Below, piece by piece: positions 5,922-51,105 of a stretch of 64,000 bases of DNA. A model generated the notes under the pieces. The model saw nothing but the letters and a program-made list of their open reading frames with translations, was not told the DNA's origin and did no database searches. The translations under genes were made by a program, and so were the position numbers. This DNA comes from an uncultured virus (IMG/VR IMGVR_UViG_3300006916_000047). Its lineage: Duplodnaviria; Heunggongvirae; Uroviricota; Caudoviricetes. Where the stretch lies: IMG/VR virus record IMGVR_UViG_3300006916_000047; one strand, written 5' to 3'. The stretch's first letter is position 1; the number at the start of each line of letters is the position of its first letter.

Positions 5922-5927
5922 AAGAGT

Positions 5928-7472: not shown

Positions 7473-7807
7473 TTACAGATGAATTAAAAACATTGATTGC
7501 CACACATATCAAAGATAACCTCTTTGATACCGCAGAAGTCGGTCTTGGAGGAAATGCCACAAGCCCAACCGCTACCGATTTAGATGTTCCTTTATCCGCC
7601 GCTACCACATTAACAATTACAAACTCCACATTAAATGTTATTGAGGTAAAAGTATCAGTAGCGGGTAGCGCAATTCAAGGTCAAGTTATTCGTGAGGTTG
7701 GTTTATTTAATGCTGGCAGATTAGTATATAGAGCCAACTTTCAAGGAGTTGGCCCATTTTCCACAACAGAAACACTAGAACTGTTTATATTGTTGGAGGT
7801 TGAGTAA
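7469..7807 (+). CDS. Small tail/baseplate structural protein
   Basis: 112 aa; VGLGG...IREVGLF pattern seen in tail-fibre attachment/baseplate proteins; overlaps both neighbours. Confidence 0.5.
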   Translation: MITDELKTLIATHIKDNLFDTAEVGLGGNATSPTATDLDVPLSAATTLTITNSTLNVIEVKVSVAGSAIQGQVIREVGLFNAGRLVYRANFQGVGPFSTTETLELFILLEVE

Positions 7808-7808
7808 T

Positions 7809-9536
7809 ATGGTAAGTAATCCGAACTTTTACGGGCAAAGCACACACGGAACGCCTAATCAAATTGAAGATGGTGTAGATTTTCCTCATACAGGGATTAT
7901 TAAAGCCCTTTCAGATGGTTTAGGTCAAAACTATGCAATTAGTGGTTTTGACATTACTATTGATAGCGCAACACAAATTGATGTTGGTGCAGGAGTTATT
8001 TTCCGTGATGGTAAAAGAGTCGCAGTTTCAGCAGTTTCTAATTTAACATTGAGTTCAACATATACGAATGGTTATCATTTACTAATTGCTAGTAGTGCTT
8101 CTTCTCCTGTTTTAACGATAAGAAACCCTACTGCGGCGGATAAGGTCGCTCAATATACGGCAGGAGATACTATTATTGCAGTTATTACCCATAACGGAAC
8201 TGCAAATGTAGGTATTCAATATCTTACTGTTAATAAAACTGAAAATTCTTTAAGCCTTGGCTATAATAATTCAGGATATACTGAAACAGGAACCTTAACT
8301 GCTGATGCCAATGGAATTACAATGACAGGATTACATAAACTAGATACTTTAACAACGGCAACTGCACATGGAACGAATAGTAAAGTTTTAATTCAAGATG
8401 GTGCTAACGGTGAGGAAATTAGAACCATTACTGCTCAATCTATTGCTGACCTTGCACCACAGGGAGATATTACTGGCATAACTGCTGGAGCGGGCTTAAC
8501 TGGAACTGATTTGACCGGCCCTGTTCCTACATTAAATGTAGAGGTAGATGATTCCACCATTGAAATTAATTCGGACGCATTGAGGGTAAAAGATGATGGA
8601 ATAACTTATGCTAAAATTCAAAATGTTTCTCAAACAAATGTTGTTCTTGGAAGAGATACTGCGGGCGCGGGCGTTATTGAAGAAATAGGTGCTACTGCTT
8701 TAGGCACAATGATTGGAGATACATTACAAACTATAACTACTCGTGGTGCTACTACTGCTATTGGTATCACCAATAATGGATATAGACACTACCAAATTCC
8801 ATTACCAGCCGCAGGTTTAACCGATTTAACGGTTGGTGCGCCCCCTGTGTTTAGTCATTATTACATTAACGCTAATGCTGCGTTAGTGGTGGGAACAAAC
8901 GGACAAGTTATTACAATCAAAAATATAGACACCAACCCTATTTTAATTACACATGCAACAGCGTTTGAAGGAGGTATTGCTTTTGCTAAAGACCAAAGAC
9001 ATACGGCTCCCGACACCATTACTTTAGAAAGTCTTGAAACAATAAGGCTTCAATATTTGTTAGATTCAGCAGGTGTTCCTACCGCTACTTGGTATATTAC
9101 TGAAACTGATACTGGGGGAACTGCTGGAATTGCTAATGTTGTAGATGATACAAGTCCTCAATTGGGCGGTAATTTAGATGTTAATAGTAATAAAATTACT
9201 GGAACTATTGTTTTTGATGGTGATGTTAATATTGAAGCAGGACATACATTAAGAACAACCACTTTACCCGTTGTAGATATTAACTCCGACCCTAACCCGT
9301 TAGTCTTAGATACTCACGCAGGGAGATATTTATTGTGTAGTTCAAATATTACCTTACCTGCTACTTCAACACAAGGCGACCAATACTTTTTGCTTAACGA
9401 TTCAGGAAGCAGTATTAGCATTTTAAGAAACGGAAATAACATAAATGGGGCGGCTAGCGATGCAACTTTAACCGCATATAAGGGTGCTACATGTATTGCT
9501 ATTGGCTCAAATAATTGGATTGTATTAGGTGTTTGA
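7809..9536 (+). CDS. Tail fibre-like protein
   Basis: T/G/A-rich; GDITGITAGAGLTG and DTSPQLGGNLDVN motifs are common in marine phage fibres; ATG at 7809 follows GGAGG. Confidence 0.65.
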   Translation: MVSNPNFYGQSTHGTPNQIEDGVDFPHTGIIKALSDGLGQNYAISGFDITIDSATQIDVGAGVIFRDGKRVAVSAVSNLTLSSTYTNGYHLLIASSASSPVLTIRNPTAADKVAQYTAGDTIIAVITHNGTANVGIQYLTVNKTENSLSLGYNNSGYTETGTLTADANGITMTGLHKLDTLTTATAHGTNSKVLIQDGANGEEIRTITAQSIADLAPQGDITGITAGAGLTGTDLTGPVPTLNVEVDDSTIEINSDALRVKDDGITYAKIQNVSQTNVVLGRDTAGAGVIEEIGATALGTMIGDTLQTITTRGATTAIGITNNGYRHYQIPLPAAGLTDLTVGAPPVFSHYYINANAALVVGTNGQVITIKNIDTNPILITHATAFEGGIAFAKDQRHTAPDTITLESLETIRLQYLLDSAGVPTATWYITETDTGGTAGIANVVDDTSPQLGGNLDVNSNKITGTIVFDGDVNIEAGHTLRTTTLPVVDINSDPNPLVLDTHAGRYLLCSSNITLPATSTQGDQYFLLNDSGSSISILRNGNNINGAASDATLTAYKGATCIAIGSNNWIVLGV

Positions 9537-15304: not shown

Positions 15305-16212
15305 AACCACGAATCCTGTTGCGCTCCTTCGCAAATACCAAAGAAAGAACAATGGCTACAAGTTTTGTAATAAAACTTAGGCGCAAAGTGTTTATTTTCA
15401 TAGGCATGAATTAATTCGGCAATATGATTCATAACAGAGGTCATTGTTCTTGTTTTGATAGGCTCAACTGTTATGTGATTTGCCACGGGATAATACCAGC
15501 CCCAATGAGATACTTCCATATCCTTTGATAGGCCATGCATTTGAAGAACTTCTTCTGTTGAGTTTTCAATCATCAATTGGTAGAATGCCATTTCCTTTCT
15601 CATACCCGTTGCTTTGTAGTCTTTCCATCCTCCGGTCTTGTATTCAAAGGGAATCAGTTTTCCGTTTTCAATAAATACTCGGTCAATAATTCCTTGGAGA
15701 CGCACCTTGTAATCTCTTTGCAGAGTGAATTTCTTATGAGTGTCTTTAGGAATCATTACTTCGCAATCAAATTTCTTTTCATTAATGACTGGCAAAAATT
15801 CATCTGTCTTTCCTTCCGCTACTGCTTCAATAAAGCGTTGGGCTTCAAATGCCGCCACCGTTAAAGAAACATCGTAGTATTCATCTACTGGCATCAAAGA
15901 GTTGCAGTATTCCATGATTTCTGTATTGTTCATTTTCTCTGCCTTCTTAATGTCAAAATCATCAAAAAATGCTTCTCTGTGGTTGTGAAGAATTGTTCCT
16001 TTACGCATTGCTTCTGTTTGGTCTTGAGACAAACGCTCAACATAGGAGAACTCATATTTCTTAGGACACCAAACGAATGACATAAGAGAAGACTTAGAAA
16101 TCTTCAAAATCGGTTCCGATGGGTCGGAATAGTTCTCCGGCATCCACTTATATGTGAATTCTTTCATTTCTCCAAGCGATGCTTCGTATGCTTCTTCTTT
16201 ATTCAAAACCAT
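15301..16212 (-). CDS. Solo Cas4-like PD-(D/E)XK exonuclease
   Basis: N-terminal WCPKKY, GIIDR, EYKTG, C-terminal CSHCSFFGIC (Fe-S ligands); no other cas genes. Confidence 0.8.
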   Translation of the reverse strand: MVLNKEEAYEASLGEMKEFTYKWMPENYSDPSEPILKISKSSLMSFVWCPKKYEFSYVERLSQDQTEAMRKGTILHNHREAFFDDFDIKKAEKMNNTEIMEYCNSLMPVDEYYDVSLTVAAFEAQRFIEAVAEGKTDEFLPVINEKKFDCEVMIPKDTHKKFTLQRDYKVRLQGIIDRVFIENGKLIPFEYKTGGWKDYKATGMRKEMAFYQLMIENSTEEVLQMHGLSKDMEVSHWGWYYPVANHITVEPIKTRTMTSVMNHIAELIHAYENKHFAPKFYYKTCSHCSFFGICEGAQQDSWL

Positions 16213-17090
16213 TCCTCCAGTGTTGTTTGTCCTTTTATTGTTCTAATGTTGTTAATTTGCCAACCCATCGCTTCATAGATAGGTTTAGCCTTTCTGATAA
16301 GTTGCTCTGCATAGTGGTGATAGTCGGGCGTATAGGTGTTAAAATCCGAAAGGATTGTCCCCGAAACATACTCAACATCTCGCCTCTCTTTTGTCAAAGG
16401 GTTCGTGTATTTATCATTGACCCCCGACACCTTCAAGAAAATGTAAGAGTCATCAAAGGTAGTGTTCTGCTTTTCCCAAGCATAGAGAACGCCAGCAATA
16501 CCGGAACCAATTGAAGGGCGTTTGTCTTGTTCGGTTGTGAAGTTTTTCGGATTCTCTCCGCATCTTTCACACGCATAGACATTTAACATATCACGCATAT
16601 TGAACTTTGCTCGGCACTTTTTACATTTCAGTTTAAATCTCTCTTCTTTCAACCTACTTCTCTTTGCTAAGTCGCTGATGGGTACTTCTCCATTCACCAC
16701 TTTTTTGTAAGTTTCTGCGAGATAGGTGTTTATCTCAGCAAATGTCTTTTGGTTTGCCCACATCTTTAACAAAGTTGTTTGGAACTCCTTTGCTAATTTT
16801 GTTTCGCTAACTCGCTTTGCAGTGAAGCCAGTCATGGTGAATTTTGGTTCATCCAAATAAGAACCATCTTCCCATGTAATCATTCCTGCGTTTCTGTTTT
16901 TGACCGTACCGACACCCAACGCTGAATAATACTTCTCAAACTCCAAACTAACGGGATGCTGTTCAAGTCCGAGAACATTCGGGAAACTTTTTTTGACTTC
17001 ATCTTCAATCACCTTGATTGCTTTTTGTGCGGCTTCCACGGAATCAATTTGCACATAGATAGAATCGGTATGTCCATAAACCACTTTCAT
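16203..17090 (-). CDS. polB: Family B DNA polymerase, C-terminal half (palm motif C, thumb)
   Basis: MKVVYGHTDSIYV, LEFEK, KNRNAG; Zn-ribbon insert CKKC..CERC; C-terminal PIP box QTTLEEWF. Confidence 0.85.
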   Translation of the reverse strand: MKVVYGHTDSIYVQIDSVEAAQKAIKVIEDEVKKSFPNVLGLEQHPVSLEFEKYYSALGVGTVKNRNAGMITWEDGSYLDEPKFTMTGFTAKRVSETKLAKEFQTTLLKMWANQKTFAEINTYLAETYKKVVNGEVPISDLAKRSRLKEERFKLKCKKCRAKFNMRDMLNVYACERCGENPKNFTTEQDKRPSIGSGIAGVLYAWEKQNTTFDDSYIFLKVSGVNDKYTNPLTKERRDVEYVSGTILSDFNTYTPDYHHYAEQLIRKAKPIYEAMGWQINNIRTIKGQTTLEEWF

Positions 17091-17094
17091 GTTA

Positions 17095-17295
17095 TCAGCC
17101 TCGGTAATGCACGAATAGCATTCCAACGGGTTCACCTGCAAGTTTCGCTACCGTTTCTTGTAGTTCCGTAATTTGTGCTTTGATGTTTTGTAGTTTCTGC
17201 ATATCAGCATACAGAGAATCCATTTCATCAGCAATATGTTCCTTCATTTGTTTAATTTCTTTTAGGGTTTCAAAATATAGTTTTTCTTCTTTCAT
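17095..17295 (-). CDS. Small coiled-coil protein between the PolB halves
   Basis: 66 aa with heptad pattern. Confidence 0.55.
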   Translation of the reverse strand: MKEEKLYFETLKEIKQMKEHIADEMDSLYADMQKLQNIKAQITELQETVAKLAGEPVGMLFVHYRG

Positions 17296-17574: not shown

Positions 17575-17665
17575 TTGCCCATCTCCATTCTTTGTAGCAT
17601 TTCCAGCAAAGTCCATGATTTGGATGAATAGCCGTTCTTTTTCTGCATCGTTTGCATATTTTCAT
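17564..17665 (-). CDS. Micro Zn-finger protein (33 aa) between the PolB halves
   Basis: MKICKRCRKRTAIHPNHGLCWKCYKEWRWANEN*; ATGA overlap with the PolB-N stop. Confidence 0.5.
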   Translation of the reverse strand: MKICKRCRKRTAIHPNHGLCWKCYKEWRWANEN

Positions 17666-19299
17666 ACTTTCATCTCCTTAGCCTTAAATGCCGCTAAACG
17701 AATTGCTTCTCTTGCACTTGCAGTAATAGATGCGGCTAAATCTACATCAGCCCAACCAAAACCTTGGAAGGCAACGATACCATAGAAAGAAGCCATGAGT
17801 CTTTTAACCGCCATTTGATTGTTATACCACTTTTGATATTCTCCATTGTTCGTCTCTCTTGCTTCTTTCATCAGTCGCTTGTAATCGTTCCGCAACTCTT
17901 TCAACTCAAGGACGGCTCTCGGAAGAAGCCCCAGTTTATCAGTCTTATAGTAGAGCATATCCCGGTGTTTTACATCGCTGAAATCTCTTGGCGTTGAGAT
18001 GTTCACGGCAAACTCTGTTGGTTCTTCCGACTTGGTTTCCCAAGAAATGTTTCGTGCAATCATCATTGAAGGGTAAAGTCCTGCATAGTCAAATGCGGCC
18101 ACATTCAAATGAAGCCCTTGAGTTTGTTCACTCAATGGGTCGTAAATCATAGCCCCGTCATATTCTCGGCGTTCAATATCTCTGTTTCCTGTTGGTGCTT
18201 TCCAAGTAGCGTTTCGCATAAAATAGATTGAACCCATATGACTTGCATAAAAACAAGCATCAAAGGGTGCTTTCAACAAACGCTGTAATGAAACAATTGC
18301 TTCACTACAAAAGTTTGTTTCGTCAATACGCACTAATAATTCAACATCAACCACAGCATACTCCAAATACACTTCTGTATCTTCTAACCATGCTCTGCGG
18401 AAAAATTCGTTTTTGTCTTCAAATTTACCCTTCTTTACTTTACCTTCACCAAAAAGTGTTTGTGAAACATACTCAAGACTTAGAGAAGGTAATGTTCCTC
18501 TTTGTGAGTCATTCCATTGACGCTCAAAAGCAAGGTCAAGAGAGAGACTTATGCGGCCCCCTACGGGCTGTTCAATGGGTGAGAAACCCTTTTCAGCATA
18601 GGCAAAAGAAAAGCCTCCCTTAGTCGCCTTAACCCCCTTAACGCTGGCAGTTGGAGATATGATGCGGGGGTCAATTCCCAAAGCACAAGCCCTCTTGAGA
18701 AGATGAGGCAAGTCAAACTTATTTCCAAACCAAGCAATTAACATATCGGGGTCTTTCATAATCATTGTATTCAAAAAAGAATCTATCATATCCCTTTCAC
18801 TGCTAAAAACAAAACAGTTTGTCTCAGTATTGGTTTCTTCGGGAAACCAAACCCACTGTAAATACTCTTTATCGTAGTTATCATATGCAACAATCGTTGT
18901 AATGCAATCGTGAAACTCTCCACCCTGTTGCCATTCCATATCCCAATACCACTTACGCATTTCATACTCTGGCATTTTGTTGATTTCATCAACAGCATAC
19001 CTAAAGTGATAAGGAACATCGGCTTCATAGGTTTTAGAAAACTCTTCTTTTGCTTTACGAATATCAAAGGAAGATTCAACATAAACTTTCTTCAACTGTT
19101 GTCCTTCCAAATTAAAGAAGTCGCCTTCTTCATATTCAAATTGACGCTCAATGTATTTTGATGGCTTGTAGTGTCTAGGGGTTTCATTTTCATGAACATA
19201 AAAATATGGACGGAACGGAACGATGTTCCATTTCTTCTCGCCATTTTCTCTCCAAGATGTGTATATATTTTGACCTTTATTCATTTTACTAATTATCAT
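17662..19299 (-). CDS. polB: Family B DNA polymerase, N-terminal half (exonuclease, motifs A and B)
   Basis: WDME, NKFDLP, YAVVD exonuclease motifs; FDYAGLYPSMM (motif A); QMAVKRLMASFYG (motif B). Confidence 0.9.
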   Translation of the reverse strand: MIISKMNKGQNIYTSWRENGEKKWNIVPFRPYFYVHENETPRHYKPSKYIERQFEYEEGDFFNLEGQQLKKVYVESSFDIRKAKEEFSKTYEADVPYHFRYAVDEINKMPEYEMRKWYWDMEWQQGGEFHDCITTIVAYDNYDKEYLQWVWFPEETNTETNCFVFSSERDMIDSFLNTMIMKDPDMLIAWFGNKFDLPHLLKRACALGIDPRIISPTASVKGVKATKGGFSFAYAEKGFSPIEQPVGGRISLSLDLAFERQWNDSQRGTLPSLSLEYVSQTLFGEGKVKKGKFEDKNEFFRRAWLEDTEVYLEYAVVDVELLVRIDETNFCSEAIVSLQRLLKAPFDACFYASHMGSIYFMRNATWKAPTGNRDIERREYDGAMIYDPLSEQTQGLHLNVAAFDYAGLYPSMMIARNISWETKSEEPTEFAVNISTPRDFSDVKHRDMLYYKTDKLGLLPRAVLELKELRNDYKRLMKEARETNNGEYQKWYNNQMAVKRLMASFYGIVAFQGFGWADVDLAASITASAREAIRLAAFKAKEMKV

Positions 19300-33116: not shown

Positions 33117-33449
33117 TTAAAACGATTTGCCATGCATAAATTCACGGCTTTTATTGTATTCAATCTTAGCGAGAATCGCACCCGCTACATCTAAGTCCAT
33201 ACCAAAAGCATAGTCCATAATCCGAATTATCACATCTGCAAATTCTTCTTCAACACTACTAAACTCCATGATTTTATTTGATGACGGATTTCCATCACGC
33301 ATGGCTTCCAATGCTTCGGATAATTCCGAATGCATAAGAGCAACTGCTTCTCCATCATTTCTATCTACTTGCCAAAAGCCATGATTCACGGCATTGGTGT
33401 AAATTGTTTTTGCTAATTTATTCCATTCTTTTTCAAACATCTGTTTCAC
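33117..33449 (-). CDS. MazG-like NTP pyrophosphohydrolase
   Basis: LMHSELSEALEA, EEFADVIIR, KIEYNKSR. Confidence 0.85.
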   Translation of the reverse strand: MKQMFEKEWNKLAKTIYTNAVNHGFWQVDRNDGEAVALMHSELSEALEAMRDGNPSSNKIMEFSSVEEEFADVIIRIMDYAFGMDLDVAGAILAKIEYNKSREFMHGKSF

Positions 33450-34299
33450 CTATTTTGTTTATATCTTTGCCTCTTAATTGTTTTACCGACTCTTTCCCAA
33501 TCAAGGCTAAAAGGGATTTTGTCTGTTGATATATATTCTTTTCATCAAAAGAACATAACTTGCTAATTTCTTTACGGCTCGGTAGTTTTCTCTCAAAAAT
33601 ATTTGAGGTTATCCAACAAATCGCCGCATAGTAGCATTTGCCTTTTGTGAAATTACTATTGCTCACAATATTCTCAAATCGGGCAAGGACTTCCAAACAT
33701 TGTTGGAGATAAATTCTATCCTTTGTTATCTGCAACACATGGTATTCTAGTTGATATGCAGGATTAACTTCGGTATAATTGATTTGATTACGATAAAGAG
33801 AGTTGAGTCTCCTAATTATCTTACGCACATTTTTTGGCTTGACTTCAAATTCTACCATAATTTTCTTAAGAGGTAGGGGCGTACCTCGCTCTTTCAAAGC
33901 ATAGAAAACAACGGCAGTGGCTCTATCTTCAAAAGGAGTTTTACCGAACACTCCTTTTCTGTATGCCTCCATGTAAATTTTCTCAACTCTTTCTTTCAAA
34001 GACGGAGAAGGGGAAAAGTTCGCCAAAACCATATTGCAGTGTAGTAGAGCCTGTTGGATGTTTGTGGGTACAACGCTTCTTTTAAGGCGGTTAAACTTGT
34101 AAGACCCTTCTCCGGTGATAATGGAACCCAAATATCCCTTATCGGGAGAGCGAGCCACCTCACCTTTACTGTCCAAAATGTGAACAGTTTCTTCAAACAT
34201 CTCAGTTATGAGAACAAGACCGCATGAATCACACACACGCTCTCCCATCTCTTCATCAAAACTACTATCCGTACTACCGCATTCTTCGCATTTGTTCAT
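33433..34299 (-). CDS. tfb: Transcription initiation factor IIB (TFB) homolog
   Basis: Zn ribbon CEECGS...GERVCDSCGLV followed by two cyclin-like repeats. Confidence 0.85.
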   Translation of the reverse strand: MNKCEECGSTDSSFDEEMGERVCDSCGLVLITEMFEETVHILDSKGEVARSPDKGYLGSIITGEGSYKFNRLKRSVVPTNIQQALLHCNMVLANFSPSPSLKERVEKIYMEAYRKGVFGKTPFEDRATAVVFYALKERGTPLPLKKIMVEFEVKPKNVRKIIRRLNSLYRNQINYTEVNPAYQLEYHVLQITKDRIYLQQCLEVLARFENIVSNSNFTKGKCYYAAICWITSNIFERKLPSRKEISKLCSFDEKNIYQQTKSLLALIGKESVKQLRGKDINKIGETDV

Positions 34300-43134: not shown

Positions 43135-43587
43135 TCACTCTTCGGAAAGAAGAGACGAAACGCTACCGTCCCATTCGCCAGCCTTGTATTGCTTAACCAA
43201 TGCGCTACGAGTGCGCTTCACGACGGAAGCGGCGTAGTCATCGGAAGTTTCGTACAAAGCACCGCCTCTAGCAAAAGAGACTTGGGCGATGATTTCGTCA
43301 TGGTCGAAGTAAGCAGAAGCGGCTTCGCTCACAACTCCACAAATCTTGTCAATAGAGACTCGCACAGCAGTTGGAACCGATGGTTTCTTTCCCTTGCGGA
43401 AAGGTGTTCCATCTCGTCCCTTCAAAAGAGCCTTCACTGCATTTCGGCAGTTCTCTCTTTCTCCGGCGTCATTCGTTCCAATCTCAAGGTTGAGGCTGAT
43501 GACTTGGCTAAGTCCAGCCTCAAGGTCTGCGGCCTCAAGGTATTCGTTCACATCAAGCACTAGGCTATCCCATTCGGTGTTTTCCAT
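43135..43587 (-). CDS. Hypothetical protein, distant paralog of 46130..46651 and 47291..47827
   Basis: Shared pattern W...L.IG...R...A...KG...P...GK/R...GG.Y...ALV..YKA..W.G. Confidence 0.6.
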   Translation of the reverse strand: MENTEWDSLVLDVNEYLEAADLEAGLSQVISLNLEIGTNDAGERENCRNAVKALLKGRDGTPFRKGKKPSVPTAVRVSIDKICGVVSEAASAYFDHDEIIAQVSFARGGALYETSDDYAASVVKRTRSALVKQYKAGEWDGSVSSLLSEE

Positions 43588-43635
43588 ATTTTTCAACTCC
43601 ATCCCCATTCGGGGGTAAGTTATCATGTTGTTATC

Positions 43636-43652
43636 CCCATATAAAGCACCCT
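43636..43652 (-). promoter_or_regulatory. Archaeal TATA-box promoter heading the - strand block
   Basis: - strand AGGGTGC-TTTATATG-GG; matches 36629-36645. Confidence 0.55.
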
Positions 43653-43830
43653 AAAATGATTAAAAGTCGCCCTGATAGCAGGACTTGTGAATAATTACTC
43701 AGGTTGCATTGTAGAACAACCATCAGCCACCATCCGAAGACTGTTGATTAAAAACATCAAATGAGCACAATTAGCCCACAAAGCCAATTAATTCTATTTA
43801 GCCCAATTTAAATCGCATCAATAGAAGAAA

Positions 43831-44205
43831 ATGCATCTCACCAACGGATGCATCTCACATCCATCTCAAAAATCGGCAAATCGTGAGACGAACACTTATG
43901 CAACACAACCCTACCTGTTAGACCCCATAACGACACCTTTTCCATAATGCATCTCATCCATCTCATATCTCACGCACCCTCTACTTTCTCTCATACCTTT
44001 TTTTCCCATAAGGACTCTCTCCTAGAAGCACTTATGAAAAGCACTTATGTAAAGGGTTTCATAGAACGCTCTCTCAGAGAGTATGAGATATGAGATATGA
44101 GATATATGAGATGTATTGATTAAGAATATGTAGTTATGATACATAACTACCCCTATCCTCATCCAATACAATCCATCTCATTCCCTGCTTCGGATGAGAC
44201 GGATT
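43831..44205. repeat. Cluster of direct and inverted YATCTCA/TGAGAY repeats in non-coding DNA (origin- or packaging-like)
   Basis: CATCTCA at 43834, 43851, 43862, 43950, 43959, 44174; TATCTCA at 43966; TGAGAT at 44084, 44091, 44098, 44107; TGAGAC at 43884, 44195. Confidence 0.75.
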
Positions 44206-44432
44206 GATTAATCTATATTATATGATATATTGGATATTAGATATGCTATGTTATTCTTATTTGAAATACATCCAATTGAGCACTACCCTTTGTTTGTGTT
44301 ATTGTGGTCGGTATAACTTATTTTGCCGAGTAAAAGGGGTTCTTTAAATATGGAATAAGAAATCCTTGCATTCTTTCCTACCATATGGTCATAACTTTGT
44401 GGCTATTGGCCCGAAGGCCGTTTCCTGCCCCC

Positions 44433-44744
44433 TCAGGGCCTCTCAAAGGGCAGGGGGAGGGTATGGTCTTCTTCCCATTCGCCCTTCTCTTCGTTGTATT
44501 TGGGCTTCACCACGAAGTCTTCACCGAGGTTCCACATCAATTCGCTCATTTTGCCCCAATAAGCACCAATCTCCTTACGGGTCGCTAATCGGCACATTTC
44601 GCAGGCATTGACCTTGTATGGAGCGCACTTTTCACATGGAACAACGGCAACATACCCATAATTAGCAACATCTGGCGTTCTACCGATGGCTCGGAAGCAG
44701 AAACGGACTTTATCGTAGGGTGTTCGGCGCATAACTCGGCTCAT
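44433..44744 (-). CDS. Unit 1 protein (Cys-rich)
   Basis: Fills the interval between sites 1 and 2; CEKC...CEMC. Confidence 0.6.
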   Translation of the reverse strand: MSRVMRRTPYDKVRFCFRAIGRTPDVANYGYVAVVPCEKCAPYKVNACEMCRLATRKEIGAYWGKMSELMWNLGEDFVVKPKYNEEKGEWEEDHTLPLPFERP

Positions 44745-44834
44745 ATTAACACCATAATCGCATTATTCATCGGGTGGGACATACAAAGATGCCCCACCAT
44801 ATGGTCATAACTTTGAGTGATGACCCGAAGGCCG

Positions 44835-45131
44835 TTAGTAGCGGGGGGCTTCCTCAAGCCATCCCTCCAAATCCTCACGAAGCGAGTTGTAGCGAGTAGC
44901 GTCCCGCATCATCTCCACAATGATGATTTTTGCTTCTTGCGAAAGCGTGGCCCATTCCTCGGCAGGGAACTCCCAATCATTGACGACGGTAAATTCTGCC
45001 CGGAGGATTCGGTACTTTTCCTCAATTCGGATGATTTCATGGAAGGCATCTCCAGCATCTTCCTTTAGTGCATAGACTTCTTGGATTTCCTTTCGCTCTG
45101 CATCTCGTAATTCACGGAGTTGGGTGTTCAT
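44835..45131 (-). CDS. Unit 2 protein (acidic, helical)
   Basis: Fills the interval between sites 2 and 3. Confidence 0.65.
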   Translation of the reverse strand: MNTQLRELRDAERKEIQEVYALKEDAGDAFHEIIRIEEKYRILRAEFTVVNDWEFPAEEWATLSQEAKIIIVEMMRDATRYNSLREDLEGWLEEAPRY

Positions 45132-45613
45132 GCCAATGTGAGACTTAGGGGTTTTATGGGGTGTTATTCACAAAGTTATAACACCATATGGTTGGCTTTG
45201 CTTCAACCCCGCATCTTCGGGGGCGTTGCACACCTCACATGATTTTAGAGGGTGCTTATGGTCAAATGCTTCGCACACCAATGTTGATACTTCTTCTATT
45301 GTTTTCATGGTCTTCACCTGTGGATATATTGAATCGGAGACACACCTCGTTCTACCCTTTACTTCTTTCAATCGCTTACCGCTTTCCGTCGCCGTTTCCT
45401 TCGCACTTTTCCTAGGATTGTTGCGCCTTGTTTCTGCTTTCGTGGCGGGCTTCGCCTATTTCTGTCGGTTGATGTGTTCTTTTCGTCAAGGAGGGATGCA
45501 TATCGCTTGACTACACTAAGGGCTGAATAAATCTGTTTTTGGTAAGGTAGAGACAAAGCCCTACCATATGGTATTGCTTTGTTATACCCGAAGGGGCCGA
45601 AGCCCCAACGATT

Positions 45614-45991
45614 CTACTCCTCCTCATCCCCATACTCGGTGTGATACACATAGAGAAGAACACGGACATCCTTCTCCTCACGGGAAACGGCTTCAAATTC
45701 GGCCTGTTCATGCCCTTCGGCATCAAGATTCACTTCGTAGGTAAAACCGTCATAGATGTCATTCCGAGCCATGGCATGAAATTGCATGAGCGTTTTGGCG
45801 GCCTTGCTCCATTCCTCAAGAGTAATGTTTCCTTCATCGGATTGAACCAATTCAATGAATTGCCGGTGATGAGTAGTCAAACCCCATGCAATACCCGAAC
45901 CAACACGGTTTTCAATACCAAGCATCCAGCCGCAAGTGTTGTCAATCAAATGTTGCTTCTTTTTAGTTGTGAACATGGTAATGAGAAACAT
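45614..45991 (-). CDS. Unit 4 protein
   Basis: Fills the interval between sites 4 and 5; start uncertain (MFLITM or MFTTKK); ends YGDEEE. Confidence 0.6.
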   Translation of the reverse strand: MFLITMFTTKKKQHLIDNTCGWMLGIENRVGSGIAWGLTTHHRQFIELVQSDEGNITLEEWSKAAKTLMQFHAMARNDIYDGFTYEVNLDAEGHEQAEFEAVSREEKDVRVLLYVYHTEYGDEEE

Positions 45992-46129
45992 ATGATATTT
46001 AGAATATGGTGCGACAAAGCCACACCATATGGTAATGCTTTGCACTTACCTTATCAAAAACATATCTGTTAGACCACTGTTGCTTTCATAGGAACAGCAA
46101 GCAAAACCCACCAAAAGGAAGTGAAAAAT

Positions 46130-46651
46130 ATGAAATTGAACAACTGGAACCGAAATTCCGCACTCGTCCGTCTTTTCTTGGACGAAGTGGAAGACGAAAA
46201 TCTACACAAGGCCACACTGATTGGAACCCTCAACCTTGGCGACCAAGCAGAAAATGATGAAATGCGAACCGTGTACTGGACAGCCGTCCGAAACATGGGT
46301 AAAGGGATTGAGGGGTTTCCATCTTTCTCTGGTCGCCCTTCAGAGAACTATACCCCCGAACAAGAAGCGAACCTTCTCAGTGTTGTGAATACCCTTCGCT
46401 CTGCTTATGCTTCAGTCCCTACTGAAATGCAAGCCGTTCTTTTGAAGGTCAAAGTACCTCACGGACGAACCGGCGGCGAATTTGCCGACTACGAAGCCAT
46501 GATTGATGATGAATGCCGCAAGGCGCAAAATGTCATGAAGGCGGCCATCAAAGACAAGCGATGGGATGCATTGAGCATGGATGGAAACATTCCTCAAATC
46601 ACCCCAACGGCTGTTAAGGCTGATTCCGAGGAGGTTTCCGAGGAAGAGTGA
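46130..46651 (+). CDS. Unit 5 protein, paralog of unit 7
   Basis: LGDQAENDEMRTVYWTAVRNMGKG and PHGRTGG shared with unit 7. Confidence 0.75.
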   Translation: MKLNNWNRNSALVRLFLDEVEDENLHKATLIGTLNLGDQAENDEMRTVYWTAVRNMGKGIEGFPSFSGRPSENYTPEQEANLLSVVNTLRSAYASVPTEMQAVLLKVKVPHGRTGGEFADYEAMIDDECRKAQNVMKAAIKDKRWDALSMDGNIPQITPTAVKADSEEVSEEE

Positions 46652-46788
46652 GGTATGGTGGTTATATCTCGCTTGCTGTTCCTATGTTGGCCCCATTAGG
46701 GGCCACATGGGGATAAATGCAAAGCATTACCATATGGTAATGCGACTTTGAAGCATTACCTTATTAAATCATTAATTTCTGCCTTATC

Positions 46789-47019
46789 ATGACCGACTAT
46801 AACGGATGGACTAACCGAGAGACATGGCTTGTTGTTCTGTATTTTAGCGATATTGTTGCCCGCCCTAGTGGTTGGGATTTTATCAAGGAATCCATTCAAG
46901 AAGCATGGGACGAAATCCCAAAGGTAGGCTATGGCCTCTTTTTCAACGACTTCATCAACTTTGGTTTGATTGACTGGGAGCAAATCAAGCGTTCAGCGTA
47001 TGGAGATGAGGAAGAATGA
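46789..47019 (+). CDS. Unit 6 protein (YNGWTNxETW family of small phage proteins)
   Basis: MTDYNGWTNRETWLV...IDWEQI; ends YGDEEE. Confidence 0.7.
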   Translation: MTDYNGWTNRETWLVVLYFSDIVARPSGWDFIKESIQEAWDEIPKVGYGLFFNDFINFGLIDWEQIKRSAYGDEEE

Positions 47020-47132
47020 CCGTTTATTGTCCTGAAATGTGCGGGCCTATGGAGTTTGACCCTGAATACGAATGTTATGAATGTAAGCGGTGCGGGTGCT
47101 TTGCTTACCTTGACTCTGCTCATGAGAGGTGA
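47016..47132 (+). CDS. Unit 6 second gene, micro Zn ribbon (38 aa)
   Basis: MTVYCPEMCG...YECKRCG; ATGA overlap with the preceding stop. Confidence 0.55.
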   Translation: MTVYCPEMCGPMEFDPEYECYECKRCGCFAYLDSAHER

Positions 47133-47290
47133 GAAAAGCGGCGGCCTTCGGGTCGCCTGCGTTATCCTCAAAGATACGACCATATGGTAGGAATGCTTTG
47201 CATTCAAATGAAATGATACCCTATCGTGCTATTTTCCACACCTCTACTGCTTCGGGGGAATGAAGCAACTTACTGTAAGGATGTGAAATC

Positions 47291-47827
47291 ATGACAGGAA
47301 TGAAACAAGAAAACTGGATTCGTAATACCAACCCCATTCGGGATTGGTTGAACAATCAAGAAGAAACGATGAAGACCATCACTATTGCCAACACCATTCA
47401 ATTGGGCGATAGTGCTGAGAATGATGAAATGCGTAGCGTCTATTGGACGGCTATTCGGAACATGGGAAAAGGCTGCGACACCTTCCCACAATCCACTATT
47501 GGCAAACCATCTACGCTCCCACAAGGGGTTCAAGATGCTGTGCGTTCTGTGAAGAACCGTTTGGTTCGTGCATTTGTGGAGGTTGGTGAAGCCGATTTGA
47601 TTTTGGCCACCATTTTCCCCCACGGGCGTACTGGCGGCTCCTACGAGGATATTGAAGCGTTTGCTGAGGCTATGGCCGACAAAGCAGAAAGCGCACTCGT
47701 TAGCGCCTACAAAGCCAAGCCCGAACAACGCTGGAATGGCGAAATGGTGGACGATTTGCCCACTATGACCCCGCCCCCAGTTAAGGCGAAGAAGGCCGAA
47801 GTCTCCGAGGTGAGCGAAGAAGAGTGA
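47291..47827 (+). CDS. Unit 7 protein, paralog of unit 5
   Basis: LGDSAENDEMRSVYWTAIRNMGKG, PHGRTGG, ends EVSEEE. Confidence 0.75.
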   Translation: MTGMKQENWIRNTNPIRDWLNNQEETMKTITIANTIQLGDSAENDEMRSVYWTAIRNMGKGCDTFPQSTIGKPSTLPQGVQDAVRSVKNRLVRAFVEVGEADLILATIFPHGRTGGSYEDIEAFAEAMADKAESALVSAYKAKPEQRWNGEMVDDLPTMTPPPVKAKKAEVSEVSEEE

Positions 47828-47961
47828 TTTGCTCTTTCCCCCGTGGCCCCATTGACTTGGGGTTTTCGCTACGCTGGCAAAGCCAAACCATATGGTAGTG
47901 TGAGTCTTTGTATCACACTACCCTAAATTGGTTTGTTTTGCGTCCCTTTGGAGGAAAAAAG

Positions 47962-48315
47962 ATGCAAACTTTTTACGAATGGCTTGAAGAAAAAACAGAC
48001 AGGGAAAACCGATGGGTTAGAAACGAGGAAGGAATTAGGTATTTCTTCTCCGTGGACACCATCTACGAAACCTTTTGGGAAACTGCTGATGTTTCAGCAG
48101 AAATGATGGAAAAGGACGACTTGGACGAGATTCTCCCAATTTGGAAGGAATACGCTAAGGAACACAAACCATTCCACTACACTCAAAAGGACATCAACGA
48201 GCGCATTCGTGAAAACAACGCTGAAATGCGAACCCGTTCTTATGAAATGGGTTGGGGTGGAGGATTTACTTCAGATGAGCGAGGTCGGCACACTTACTTC
48301 CCACCCGACTATTGA
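47962..48315 (+). CDS. Unit 8 protein
   Basis: MQTFYEW after GGAGG; fills the interval between sites 8 and 9. Confidence 0.65.
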   Translation: MQTFYEWLEEKTDRENRWVRNEEGIRYFFSVDTIYETFWETADVSAEMMEKDDLDEILPIWKEYAKEHKPFHYTQKDINERIRENNAEMRTRSYEMGWGGGFTSDERGRHTYFPPDY

Positions 48316-48410
48316 GGCGAAAGCCGCCCTATGAAGCAATCGCTGAGGGTTTTAGCAAAGCACCAACCATATGGTCGTATTCTTTGAATAAAGGCCCGAA
48401 GGCCGCCAAA

Positions 48411-48668
48411 TTAGGCGAAGTCCGCCTCTTCAGCACATTCGTTGCAGTAGTCGGCAATAATCATCAATTTGTCGTGGCTACACGACCAGAGGAAACCTAG
48501 AGCGTCTTCATTCCAAGAATACCATTTGGCATCGTTGTAGGTTTCGTCTGGGCTATTGGGAAATAGAAGTTCAATGAAATCAAATTTGTTTAGGCGGGTG
48601 AGAAATTTCAAGTCATCAAGGTAGTGTCCGAGGGTGTTCCAGTTCATCATAATAGGGGCGTTAATCAT
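48411..48668 (-). CDS. Unit 9 protein
   Basis: Fills the interval between sites 9 and 10. Confidence 0.6.
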   Translation of the reverse strand: MINAPIMMNWNTLGHYLDDLKFLTRLNKFDFIELLFPNSPDETYNDAKWYSWNEDALGFLWSCSHDKLMIIADYCNECAEEADFA

Positions 48669-48880
48669 TCATTCATTTTGGGGTAGCGACAAAGCACAAC
48701 CATATGGCTTTGTTTTCCAAATTTTTTTATTTGCATAACCATTTAATTCTATCGTTTTAATGTATATATTAGCCTATTAAACATATAATTAACACATTAT
48801 AACCTTCTGCGCCGCCCACAATACCTCTAAATGGGCCTCGCCCTGCGACAAGTATATATCCGGCTTCTCGTTAGGGTCAT

Positions 48881-49135
48881 TTGATAGCGGTGTCCTCGGC
48901 AACAGATGATATGGTGCTATCTACTATTCAAGCCATCTCCAAAGAAGCAAAACAACTCCGCCAAAATATGCTAAAAGCGAAGCGCAATACCAAAAAGGCC
49001 ACTACCGAAGAGACTGATAAACTTAAAAGTCTATTAAAACAATTGAATTCTTTTAGCGCAGATATTAAAAGAATATACTTACATTTATATTCTAACCCTC
49101 AAACAAAATTAACTGATTATAGTAATAATGAATAG
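48881..49135 (+). CDS. Hypothetical coiled-coil protein with PIP-like tail
   Basis: ...PQTKLTDY near the C-terminus; start uncertain. Confidence 0.4.
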   Translation: MIAVSSATDDMVLSTIQAISKEAKQLRQNMLKAKRNTKKATTEETDKLKSLLKQLNSFSADIKRIYLHLYSNPQTKLTDYSNNE

Positions 49136-49229
49136 ATTTTTATCCTGTTAATACAATGAAAAACTTTTTAATTTTTGCGCAAGTGCCAAAAAAATTCCGA
49201 GCCAATTTTTGAGAAAAGAGTTGATTAAA

Positions 49230-49541: not shown

Positions 49542-49775
49542 ATGTGGAAAGATGATTTAAAGAAATCTAATTATTATAACTACGGTATTCCGAGCGAAAG
49601 GGATAAAGCCGAAATGGAACATTACTCCGAGCAATACTCCGAGGATTTGAAAGGGCTTACGGCAGATTTAGTTTCGGAATTACAAGAAGTTCTTAGAGGA
49701 AAAGTGACCATTGGAAAATTGAGAAGAGTCTTTAAACGGTTCGGAATAGAATTTGATGATTATAACATTGAGTGA
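49542..49775 (+). CDS. WxxILK-leader protein (variant)
   Basis: MWKDDLKK. Confidence 0.65.
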   Translation: MWKDDLKKSNYYNYGIPSERDKAEMEHYSEQYSEDLKGLTADLVSELQEVLRGKVTIGKLRRVFKRFGIEFDDYNIE

Positions 49776-49801
49776 AAATTCCGCTAACAGGGTGTGATAT
49801 T

Positions 49802-50158
49802 ATGTGGAAAGGCATTTTGAAAAGCGGATTTGTCATTTGGGCTAAAGTGGATGATGGTGGTTCTTGGGTTGAATTAGCGAGGGAAGGCGGCTCAAGGGAG
49901 AATGCCTTTCAAGTTGTTAAAAGAGAGGCCAAAAAGATGAAGAGGGTTGCAGTAGGTAGTGCTTCGGAAGGAAAGGTTGTATCTATGGATGATGGTATTT
50001 TTGAGAATATCACGGAACAAGTCATCTATTATGTCATTAAGCCTTTGGGAGATTCTGCTCCCGACCCTTCATACATTCCCGATACGAGTGAAACTACAAC
50101 TTCTTCGGGGACTGAACGCAGATTGCGTGGCGATTTTGGAACGAGTGAAAGATACTAG
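49802..50158 (+). CDS. WxxILK-leader protein
   Basis: MWKGILKS. Confidence 0.65.
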   Translation: MWKGILKSGFVIWAKVDDGGSWVELAREGGSRENAFQVVKREAKKMKRVAVGSASEGKVVSMDDGIFENITEQVIYYVIKPLGDSAPDPSYIPDTSETTTSSGTERRLRGDFGTSERY

Positions 50159-50166
50159 GTGAGATT

Positions 50167-50469
50167 ATGTGGAAAAGCATTCTTAAGGACGATTTGCCAG
50201 ATTATCTCAAAAAGCCCGATTTGGGTTTTATGGGCCGTTCTCCCGATAGGGGTGTGCCGGATATGGATGATGTCGTTAGACGCTACAATGAATTGAGCGA
50301 AATGGCTTTAGAAATTAGGGATATGGTGCGAACCATTCGTTCAAGTGGATTTGAGCGTGATATGCGGGGCGGAAATAGGTACAAATATGCAGAGGCCTTT
50401 GCTAAAGAAATTGAGGATGCTTTGGGCCAATTAGAACAATTGGATATTGAAACTCATGGTGGTAATTAA
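50167..50469 (+). CDS. WxxILK-leader protein
   Basis: MWKSILKD. Confidence 0.65.
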   Translation: MWKSILKDDLPDYLKKPDLGFMGRSPDRGVPDMDDVVRRYNELSEMALEIRDMVRTIRSSGFERDMRGGNRYKYAEAFAKEIEDALGQLEQLDIETHGGN

Positions 50470-50470
50470 G

Positions 50471-50734
50471 ATGGCAGATTGGAGAGAGCAACTTAGGGCT
50501 AATATGGGCCTAAGCAATAAAACAATAGAAACGCTCTATGAAGTGCTGAGGTATAATCCTAACCTCCCCCTACAATCCATTTATTCGGCTCTGCAACAAA
50601 GAGGCCTTAAGAAAATCACCACCAAGCGGCTTAGAAAATATATGGCTAATGACCCCAAAATTGGTAGAAAGCAGGATTTGAGTAGGTTTAGTCATAGACC
50701 TATGGTGTATTATTTGAAGGAGGAAGCAAAATGA
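50471..50734 (+). CDS. Winged-helix-like basic protein with weak leader variant
   Basis: MADWREQLR; helix pattern ending YYLK. Confidence 0.55.
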   Translation: MADWREQLRANMGLSNKTIETLYEVLRYNPNLPLQSIYSALQQRGLKKITTKRLRKYMANDPKIGRKQDLSRFSHRPMVYYLKEEAK

Positions 50735-51105
50735 CATGGAAAGAGGTATTGAAGGCAGAGAAGCAACAGTTTGAGAAGAAGGGCGCAAAGCCCGACTACA
50801 TAGACATTGACGGCGATGGAAACAAAACCGAGCCTATGAAGGAAGCGGCGAAGGATGCCAAAATGAAGAAGTCTAAAGCGGCTGACTCACTATACACGGA
50901 AGAGGAGGCACTTCAAGCGGCAAAAATAGAAGCCAAAATGACGGGCAAGGTTCAACTTGTTGGGTATGTAGGTGGAGACAAATATGCCGTGGAAAGCAAC
51001 TACTTGGGTTTTAGTTTTTACAATCCAGATTACTCCCATGCCTATGATACCAAATACACGGTTTCGCCCGATGGTAAGGTTAAGCGGCTAATTCAGGGGA
51101 GATAA
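50731..51105 (+). CDS. WxxILK-leader protein with DxDxDG motif
   Basis: MTWKEVLK; KPDYIDIDGDGNKTEPMK. Confidence 0.65.
   Translation: MTWKEVLKAEKQQFEKKGAKPDYIDIDGDGNKTEPMKEAAKDAKMKKSKAADSLYTEEEALQAAKIEAKMTGKVQLVGYVGGDKYAVESNYLGFSFYNPDYSHAYDTKYTVSPDGKVKRLIQGR

Follow-up and report, generated by a model that had tools for sequence, protein, structure and literature searches.

Small gene cassettes between recurring palindromes are rearranged among viruses resembling group B magroviruses

Why does a virus carry ten copies of one short palindrome between a series of small genes, and what do these sites do? The question is raised by positions 44380 to 48712 of a 64,000-nucleotide stretch of DNA from an uncultured virus of the Caudoviricetes (IMG/VR record IMGVR_UViG_3300006916_000047), the whole of which is called the window below. 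An initial annotation, made from the sequence alone, had described this locus as a palindrome-delimited array of gene cassettes in an archaeal virus, similar to an integron or shufflon. By comparison with related viral contigs we found that the array is a lineage trait. Its cassettes have been gained and lost, have changed position, have been inverted without moving and have crossed from one lineage to another, and the junctions lie within the palindromic core or next to it. As an explanation, to which we give an even chance of being right, we propose that these are mobile regulatory cassettes, an archaeal-virus counterpart of the promoter early stem-loops (PeSLs) of T4 that is made orientation-neutral by the palindrome.

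The core ACCATATGGT is present in the window as nine exact copies (44380, 44796, 45183, 45563, 46024, 46729, 47179, 47887 and 48366), and a tenth site at 48699 has the variant core ACCATATGGC. Successive sites are 416, 387, 380, 461, 705, 450, 708, 479 and 333 bp apart. The motif count thus reproduced the number of cores and the spacing of 333–708 bp annotated before, and the remark that the core is not seen elsewhere in the window holds as well, with exact copies confined to 44380–48375. If one mismatch is allowed the window contains 13 matches compared to 1.62 expected, a number reached in none of 100 shuffles. The remaining one-mismatch matches at 23350, 41477 and 55204 are not array-type sites, as those at 23350 and 55204 are armless and the one at 41477 has a chance CTTTG only. 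At sites 2–10 an arm CAAAG is found 4–7 nt to the left of the core and at sites 1–9 an arm CTTTG 3–9 nt to its right, whereas at site 10 the latter begins with the last base C of the variant core (GGC+TTTG). The left arm is absent at site 1, exactly as described in the initial annotation, whose gene orientations (units 1–4 and 9 on the minus strand, units 5–8 on the plus strand) and unclear unit 3 were also matched by the calls of open reading frames (ORFs).

Among the proteins of the window, Pfam recognised two pieces of a family-B DNA polymerase, an RFC-like clamp loader, an ATP-dependent ligase, a Cpn60/TCP1 chaperonin, a UvrD-like helicase, an ERCC4-HhH nuclease, a PD-(D/E)XK Cas4-like nuclease and an AAA_24 ATPase, and genes for tRNA-Arg and tRNA-Leu are present. 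Magroviruses are tailed viruses of ~100 kb assigned to marine group II archaea, and in the passages on their gene content PolB, RFC, ATP-dependent ligase and chaperonin are named as features, together with tRNA-Leu and tRNA-Arg for group B and a split polymerase for group B1 (Philosof et al. 2017, PMC5434244). The gene content of the window fits a group-B-like magrovirus (Magrovirales), and the label of an archaeal virus appears reasonable, since the genes are those listed for magroviruses. Apart from this, the family-B DNA polymerase of the window is encoded in two parts, 16203–17141 and 17662–19299 (minus strand), with small ORFs between them.

All relatives compared here are metagenomic assemblies, and many of their sequences are related, so the counts are not numbers of independent events. 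Scanning viral contigs for one arm plus the core gave at least 164 stretches; at least 62 loci on at least 31 contigs have at least three exact cores, while the other matches are single and probably due to chance. A second collection was anchored on the helicase gene and comprised 80 loci, 43 of them with a helicase at least 46% identical and 4300 nt or more of DNA ahead of the gene. In 41 of these 43 loci at least three exact cores are located at the equivalent place, upstream of the UvrD-like helicase gene, the two exceptions being L206 (two cores, barely enough flank) and L188 (variant core, described below). Neither a core array nor other palindromic cores were found in 25 loci with a helicase 33–38% identical. 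In three relatives of 94–96.5 kb, rated 100% complete by CheckV, all 9, 8 and 5 cores lie in one array of 3–4 kb each; no core was found outside the array in these genomes and the reversed control pattern was absent. Arrays hold 4 to 12 cores. As L211–L213, on contigs of three metagenomes, show identical site spacing, the arrangements are reproducible and not assembly noise.

The core itself is strongly conserved. From 130 unique sites with both arms, 125 have the exact core, three differ by one mismatch at position 1 or 10, and two matches with three mismatches are probably spurious. CCATATGG is unchanged in 128 of the 130 and was found in 131 of 137 elements of the type CAAAG-N14-28-CTTTG in arrays. 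Among the cellular sequences inspected, no copy of the motif with arms came to light. A scan of cellular-genome contigs revealed no array among the 80 matches listed, which were all single and came from assorted organisms, and 301 genomes of the phylum of one Thermoplasmata metagenome-assembled genome had 0–10 cores compared to 0–14 for the reversed control, with scattered copies in the five core-richest of them. In three other cellular genomes 20 of 20 retrieved core sites were armless, although the true hosts are perhaps not among the genomes sampled. As a separate observation, two other array-bearing contigs, L124 (300–619) and L015 (4000–4100), show cores only ~90–100 bp apart without CAAAG/CTTTG arms, and the mini-cassettes between them consist of a GGAGG-like box and an ORF of 6–7 codons with an acidic end (MFDDDE-like).

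Unit content, order and orientation differ between relatives, the content varying among 43 arrays. The helicase of L165 is 94% identical to that of the window at the protein level and its backbone ~80% at the DNA level, and this backbone is collinear beside the array while the array is scrambled. Homology to L165 runs to 44389 and resumes at 45183, showing that units 1 and 2 are absent there, and the homology blocks end at 44389, 45183, 46738, 47896 and 48690. Unit 4 is found in L165 as a whole cassette that is both inverted and relocated (17496–17016), an extra unit follows the equivalent of site 6, and units 8 and 9 are absent before homology returns at site 10. Two sites of L165 are chimeric: the one at 13457 joins the left flank of window site 1 to the right flank of site 3, the one at 17026 the left flank of site 8 to the inverted left flank of site 5, and compared base by base both switch within the 10-bp core. 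In L167 unit 1 has been lost by a crossover in the arm-plus-hairpin stretch common to sites 1 and 2. L172 and L173 differ by the insertion or deletion of one cassette, where the overlap at the core is 32 nt. The order of two cassettes is exchanged between L169 and L171, and one cassette has the opposite orientation at an unchanged position in L171 and L181.

The same tendency is seen across all arrays, where 214 of 821 ends of high-scoring segment pairs (HSPs) lie within 20 nt of a core centre, a fourfold enrichment over the 6.6% expected from site spacing, and 100 of 637 HSPs are inverted. Lateral transfer was assessed with 179 cassette HSPs of at least 250 nt, and an identity at least 10 points above that of the helicase gene was taken as the criterion. 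Three of the 179 pass at 12–22 points above the helicase gene: an inverted cassette shared by L168 and L196 (92.6% compared to 70.6% for the helicase gene), unit 8 and a cassette of L171 (86.2% over 434 nt compared to 71.5%), and unit 9 and an inverted cassette of L174 (83.4% compared to 71.2%). Units 8 and 9 are absent from the nearest relative yet close to distant viruses, which is the signature of lateral acquisition. The idea of modules that are joined at the palindrome and able to invert, reshuffle or be acquired is therefore supported by indels, inversions, swaps and transfer in relatives, and identical order and orientation in all relatives, which would have spoken against it, was not found, as L165 and the pairs L169/L171 and L171/L181 differ.

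Within samples the arrangement appears constant. Seven sequencing runs, two of which are possibly the source of the window, hold at least 92% of the sampled 31-mers of the region in the window arrangement, no alternative joints were found in the assembled contigs of sequencing runs matched to the region, and there is no sign of fast switching. In the DNA run X13 contigs end near sites 2, 3, 5, 8 and 10, with loose ends at 48680 and 48715, which might be a weak hint at other neighbours.

Each half-site is a small hairpin, GGT-stem-CTTTG-stem-ACC, in which the arm is the loop, GGT of the core the 5' foot and ACC the 3' foot. This role of the arm, as well as a TATA-like box in each cassette, had been overlooked in the initial annotation. 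The stem sequences differ between sites but complementarity is kept. As an ungapped symmetric pairing test gave a small excess only (e.g. 0.57 compared to 0.53), tests based on folding were needed. For these, 542 armed halves were drawn from the 784 halves of 392 unique sites. In 79% of the armed halves the minimum free energy (MFE) fold pairs all of GGT, and their mean MFE is −5.1 kcal/mol compared to −2.8 kcal/mol with the 3' part shuffled. In a partner-swap control, using the 3' arm of another site at equal spacer length, the native value was −5.17 and the swapped value −3.16 (p 1e-38), and 7 of 8 window halves folded as DNA show z-scores of −2.7 to −7.3. Moreover, the two strands are not equivalent. 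G·T pairs number 382 on the strand reading 5'→3' away from the core and 157 on its complement, and the outward strand is more stable by more than 1 kcal in 54% of the halves, the opposite being the case in 6%. The G·T bias is present on both sides, with 114 versus 26 in halves from which a gene leaves and 94 versus 37 in halves at which a gene arrives, which points to a core-symmetric function of the single strand, be it RNA or DNA.

The position of the genes relative to the core is equally regular. By a crude rule (first ATG, longest ORF) 158 of 213 inter-site intervals were classed as dominated by a single ORF, and the distance from core centre to start codon shows a sharp mode at 50–56 nt and a second class at 90–119 nt, a spike at 0 being an artefact from the ATG within the core. 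The second class consists mostly of genes with a leader and a Shine-Dalgarno-like box that belong to family 0, the largest cassette family with 83 members (crude clustering of 43 arrays), which is present in most arrays and in either orientation. In 39 leaving genes with the ATG 48–60 nt from the core centre, an archaeal-type A/T box spans −27 to −21, ~24 nt before the ATG, with 92–95% A/T at −25 to −22; TTA follows at −5 to −3 (TTAnC before ATG), and a pyrimidine is found at −1 in 37 of 39. The spacing is that of an archaeal TATA box with transcription starting leaderless at the ATG. The geometry of the A/T box, which directly adjoins the hairpin, suggests an archaeal promoter with a leaderless transcript, in which the hairpin would occupy the position of the TFB recognition element or lie upstream of it and the core would be near −52.

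On the 3' side the order is stop codon, GC-rich hairpin, often with a CTTCGG loop, and then arm and core, and some relatives have T8 runs after the stop codon. Four GC-rich hairpins after stop codons of the window (44408–44419, 46689–46704, 47138–47160 and 48393–48404; three with CTTCGG-type loops, one with an ATTA loop) look like RNA 3'-end structures, as far as sequence can tell. Metatranscriptome contigs from three runs cover the two family-0 genes of the array in part (46097–46496, 47295–47540 and 47669–47839), and RNA contigs of two runs begin at 46097 and 46101, downstream of hairpin and A/T box.

L188, with a helicase identity of 68%, is informative with respect to the two halves of the element. 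It has no exact core but six one-mismatch, non-palindromic copies in one orientation plus the usual right-border site, and in this asymmetric array (4682–8966, reverse complement) all genes are on one strand. The arm follows directly after the core on the promoter side only, and all six variant cores point at a gene, which has its ATG ~47 nt from the centre and, ~25 nt ahead of this ATG, a TATA-like box. The promoter-side half is thus the part of the element that was retained, and the asymmetric core goes along with uniform orientation, although this pattern is a single case.

Taken together, we regard the locus as a hyperplastic accessory-gene region of a magrovirus that is built of self-contained expression cassettes. 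Every cassette ends on either side in inverted terminal elements, each made up of half a palindrome (ACCAT/ATGGT) and a small hairpin, and neighbouring cassettes abut at the palindrome centre. In our model the core would be the binding site for a sequence-specific dimeric protein, viral or from the host, which acts on the cassette promoters, the outward hairpins would insulate a cassette from polymerases crossing from its neighbour, and a GC-rich UUCG-type hairpin or a T-run would end the message at the 3' side. Rearrangement might result from the general recombination or replication machinery of the virus, which would occasionally cross over or switch template at the recurring palindrome, with a Sak4-like ATPase, a Cas4/RecB-like nuclease and an XPF/Mus81-like nuclease as candidate parts. 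Since all copies of a palindrome repeat one another in direct as well as in inverted orientation, excision or insertion and also inversion would result.

Recognised recombinases were not found, as the initial annotation had already noted for what was visible in the window. Pfam detected no tyrosine or serine recombinase in the window (ORF sets of 20, 12 and 62) and no Y1 transposase among its ORFs. PF00589 (Phage_integrase) was found in none of the three complete relatives but in 14 of 14 genomes of the control, and the same three genomes were negative for Resolvase and PF01797 (Y1_Tnp), for both of which the positive controls were detected.

Several observations are not easily reconciled with mobile regulatory cassettes. 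Exact conservation in 125 of 130 cores is far beyond that of ordinary operators, and the core is also exact at 14 of the 15 junctions that were taken to be convergent and thus need no core for a promoter, even if at least two of these 15 (two window sites) were misclassed by the crude ORF rule. The strand bias of the hairpins is core-symmetric whatever the gene orientation, which a role in expression predicts only indirectly. Breakpoints are not always central, as 27 half-site pairs keep similarity on the non-homologous side above baseline to ~+35 nt and the crossover in L167 took place in the shared arm-plus-hairpin stretch and not in the core, and ten identical bases are few for a homology-driven exchange. 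No core-binding protein was identified, the structural model of family 0 giving no informative fold match. Contigs of RNA libraries cover family-0 genes only, and contigs cannot prove starts or transcription; for archaeal RNA polymerase, termination that depends on hairpins is, to our knowledge, not an established mechanism. A purely regulatory element would not lead one to expect the extreme invariance of the core, its retention without promoter need or a strand bias centred on it, and these observations keep dedicated recombination alive as an explanation.

Such a site-specific exchange of cassettes, in which an enzyme of no recognised recombinase family, viral or from the host, would read core and hairpins, perhaps as folded single strands, cut in the central ATAT or CATATG and rejoin the ends, the symmetry of the site allowing cassettes to be excised, inserted or re-inserted either way round, is possible but in our opinion doubtful. 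It would explain why CCATATGG is invariant in both-armed sites and arm-defined elements, why convergent junctions and the two ends of the array retain the core, why stems vary yet pair as in attC sites, why the strand bias is core-symmetric and independent of gene direction, and why several junctions switch inside the 10-bp core, one event being inversion and relocation at once. However, no match to Phage_integrase, Resolvase or Y1_Tnp was obtained in the three complete relatives or the window ORFs, the arrangement is stable across samples, the assembled contigs examined contain no joints, some crossovers lie outside the core, and the retention of only the promoter-side half in L188 fits better to a promoter role. 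Still somewhat less probable, and rather unlikely in our view, is its most specific form, a previously undescribed orientation-neutral exchange system with CCATATGG as crossover site and hairpins read single-stranded by an enzyme that is neither of the tyrosine, the serine nor the Y1 type, whereby a cassette from one strand would re-insert at any site, in either orientation, or in another co-infecting virus.

The cassettes might also be transposons or miniature inverted-repeat transposable elements with terminal inverted repeats (TGGT...hairpin) that insert at TA beside an existing element and thereby generate ACCA-TA-TGGT. Inverted terminal elements of ~25–35 bp for each cassette, the occurrence in either orientation and in different viruses and a junction that can be parsed as end + TA + end agree with this, but we consider it improbable in view of the missing transposase (three families in whole relatives, Pfam on window ORFs), of complete genomes that have no core outside the array, and of cellular matches that form no array among the 80 listed and are armless in 20 of 20 sites. 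A purely regulatory role as transcription-factor operators or promoter elements, with cassette differences arising from unrelated processes, is suggested by the fixed geometry of core, A/T box and ATG and by the one-sided sites of L188 that all point at genes; it appears quite improbable given that homology breakpoints are fourfold enriched at cores, that individual events switch within the core and that the backbone is collinear while the array is scrambled. Finally, we hold it to be highly improbable that the sites are iterons of a replication origin or bind a genome-organising protein at a strand-switch region. The array does lie at the divergence of two transcription blocks and at the minimum of the cumulative GC skew, AT-rich repeat-bearing DNA is located beside it, and the outward strands would be lagging-strand templates for forks leaving the core, but the sites are separated by genes and by 333–708 bp, an array may have anything from 4 to 12 of them, and GC skew follows gene orientation and is therefore not independent evidence.

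How does the array compare to known systems? Integrons have an adjacent intI, promoterless co-oriented cassettes expressed from the common Pc and polar attC sites with R and L boxes. The array resembles them in having small accessory genes at one fixed locus, junctions that are conserved more in structure than in sequence, and cassettes by which close relatives may differ and which distant viruses may have in common. In contrast to integrons it has no integrase, each leaving gene has its own A/T box, both orientations occur, and, in place of a single polar attC, each junction has an invariant palindrome with hairpins arranged symmetrically on its two sides. Shufflons of the R64 type depend on an Rci-type tyrosine recombinase and asymmetric sfx repeats and invert segments within one gene, whereas no tyrosine recombinase was found here and the magrovirus units are independent genes that are also gained and lost. 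The label integron- or shufflon-like must consequently be given up, as there is no tyrosine recombinase and the sites are symmetric with independent, promoter-bearing genes. The short hairpins between genes, which have conserved feet and occur as inverted pairs, are also reminiscent of repetitive extragenic palindromic (REP) sequences and bacterial interspersed mosaic elements, but a Y1 or REP-associated tyrosine transposase gene is absent from all three complete relatives, there is one array only and the foot sequence is different.

The closest parallel is found in T4-type phages. As described in the passages on these elements, a PeSL, which precedes ORFans in hyperplastic regions, combines a promoter with a stem-loop containing G-T pairs (PMC2839356, PMC4122927), indels are located at the motifs and the element doubles as an exchange point (Arbiol et al. 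2010, PMC2839356; Comeau et al. 2014, PMC4122927). By these descriptions, the magrovirus array shares the repeated motif of a probable promoter and a stem-loop with G·T pairs before small ORFans, the hyperplastic region between conserved modules, the breakpoints of insertions, deletions and replacements at the motif between close relatives, and the lack of a dedicated recombinase. Unlike in PeSLs, the promoter appears to be archaeal (TATA-like, leaderless) and not of the sigma-70 type, which would make it an analogue and not a homologue; the element is an invariant 10-bp palindrome with two outward hairpins and no polarity, single cassettes are inverted, and all copies lie in one array instead of several regions. 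PeSLs are further characterised by demonstrated promoter and terminator activity and by excised mini-circles, whereas the assembled contigs matched to the array contain no joints. That the sites match neither attC nor PeSLs exactly, as the initial annotation had stated, is thus borne out by the symmetric double hairpins and the promoter type. For the haloarchaeal myovirus HGTV-1 a motif of TATA-like box and inverted repeat has been described that precedes numerous ORFs in one part of the genome, on one side; it was likened to PeSLs and proposed to have a role in shuffling (PMC3950731, citing Sencilo et al. 2013). Compared by that description only, both are archaeal tailed viruses with a repeated motif of TATA and inverted repeat, but virus group and host are different, and shuffling in magroviruses is documented across more than 40 arrays.

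Used as a search word, the core sequence retrieved cloning primers only. A description of the array was absent from the literature searched, including the magrovirus papers by term and supplements aside; the latter papers yielded no mention of palindromes, promoters, hypervariable regions, inverted repeats or recombinases (PMC5434244 was asked for fewer terms), and 'motif' in the searched text of PMC11706807 refers to 'HTH motif' (helix-turn-helix) only. New here are the virus group, the archaeal form of the putative promoter, a strictly invariant palindrome that through its two outward hairpins has no polarity and allows inversion, and the comparative depth. According to their description, magroviruses are abundant and have uncultured marine group II archaea as hosts; cultivation is possible for neither partner. 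The array pinpoints to the base pair where their accessory genes are exchanged and offers a first sequence-level picture of promoters for this virus-host pair, with a putative TATA-like box, leaderless start and invariant upstream palindrome. The 10-bp palindrome could serve as bait for its binding protein, and the motif is a metagenome marker for the virus group and its hypervariable locus, arrays being present on at least 31 contigs. Modular shuffling of the T4 type would have arisen independently with archaeal signals, the palindrome adding inversion. If a dedicated enzyme exists, it would represent a new recombination system and possibly a tool for orientation-free cassette exchange.

The array is located where a minus-strand replication block and a plus-strand block meet, and its G+C content is 44–48% compared to ~38% around it. 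Site 1 (44380–44389) forms the left border, with an exact core, the right arm only and a left flank of backbone conserved in L165 and L167. Cassette 1, which is missing from both relatives, encodes a Cys-rich protein of 103 aa without family (44433–44744, minus strand) and has its A/T box at ~44761–44771 and a GC hairpin with CTTCGG-type loop at 44408–44419. Site 2 (44772–44825) consists of a left hairpin at 44772–44798 (minus strand; −7.9 kcal/mol as DNA, z −4.2), the core at 44796–44805 and a right hairpin at 44803–44825. The gene of cassette 2 (44835–45131, minus strand, 98 aa, no family; cassette missing from L165) starts 56 nt from the core centre, with an A/T box at ~45151–45158. Site 3 (45159–45208; z −3.2) is composed in the same way of 45159–45185 (minus strand), 45183–45192 and 45190–45208. 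Cassette 3 (45193–45562, minus strand) has a promoter-like half-site but no convincing ORF; neither an Rfam family nor an unusual RNA fold was found for it (z +1.28). Its stretch 45313–45582 is 87% identical to L165 compared to 80% for the backbone, and it is inverted in L167. Site 4 (45545–45588; z −3.2) has hairpins at 45545–45565 (minus strand) and 45570–45588 around the core at 45563–45572, and cassette 4 encodes 120 aa from the ATG at 45976 (45614–45976, minus strand; A/T box ~45994–46007). The divergent junction is site 5 (46006–46050), where the core at 46024–46033 is flanked by hairpins at 46006–46026 (minus strand) and 46031–46050 with z −2.7 and −3.5.

The cassettes to its right are on the plus strand. 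Cassette 5 carries a family-0 gene (46130–46651, 173 aa, all-helical with an acidic tail) with a leader of ~100 nt that includes the Shine-Dalgarno-like GGAAGTGA, and a 3' hairpin at 46689–46704. At site 6 (46711–46760) the core (46729–46738) is followed by a right hairpin at 46736–46760 (−6.9 kcal/mol, z −7.3) and an A/T box at 46761–46769. Cassette 6 has two genes, one for DUF7249 / phrog_871 (46789–47019) and, overlapping it, one for a 38-aa zinc ribbon (47016–47132), and a 3' hairpin at 47138–47160. Site 7 (47179–47205; core 47179–47188, right hairpin 47191–47205) precedes a second family-0 paralog in cassette 7 (47291–47827, 178 aa, 42% identical to 46130–46651), and site 8 (47887–47922; core 47887–47896) has a right hairpin at 47894–47922 with a 10-bp stem (−8.9 kcal/mol, z −5.4). 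The 117-aa protein of cassette 8 (47962–48315) has no family and is missing from L165. The convergent junction, site 9 (48348–48396), keeps the exact core (48366–48375) and both arms, and cassette 9 returns to the minus strand with a gene for 85 aa (48411–48668; 3' hairpin 48393–48404). Site 10 (48699–48708) is the right border, where ACCATATGGC leads directly into TTTG and conserved backbone, as also found in L165 and L188. In total one of 12 proteins of the cassette region has a family above cut-off (Pfam, PHROGs), and no meaningful Rfam match was obtained in 43600–49200.

A divergent third paralog of family 0 lies outside the array at 43135–43626 (minus strand; hhalign probability 98.8%, E 8.6e-17 against alignment A1), and all three paralogs of the window share a length of ~170 aa, an all-helical prediction and an acidic tail. 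For family 0 nothing above cut-off was found in Pfam or PHROGs and nothing below E 0.09 in a profile search of the PDB. The AlphaFold model is all-helical with a predicted local distance difference test score (pLDDT) of 86.5; it gave no Foldseek match at E ≤0.001 and no usable match in the ESM Atlas, and with VIA-align only generic three-helix bundles were retrieved (Z up to 8.2, residues 2–72).

Some features around the array deserve mention. A protein of 288 aa encoded at 33433–34299 (minus strand) weakly resembles a TFIIB-type zinc ribbon (Pfam E 2e-6, just under cut-off), and its residues 79–165 give a weak match to the TFB core of Pyrococcus (PDB 1d3u_B, E 0.03), namely to the first of its cyclin folds. 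One could speculate that it is a viral TFB-like factor that gives the virus its own promoter specificity. The array is flanked by AT-rich non-coding stretches at 43630–44380 and 48709–48880, and the left one contains a tandem GAGATAT repeated four times (44077–44105), a 13-mer repeated 2.2 times (44026–44054) and a short inverted repeat nearby; this flank at the strand switch may be an origin or control region. Further to the right, at 49542–51105 (plus strand), four of five consecutive small ORFs have a similar N-terminus (MWK..LK in three, MTWKEVLK in one), which may represent a targeting or processing signal.

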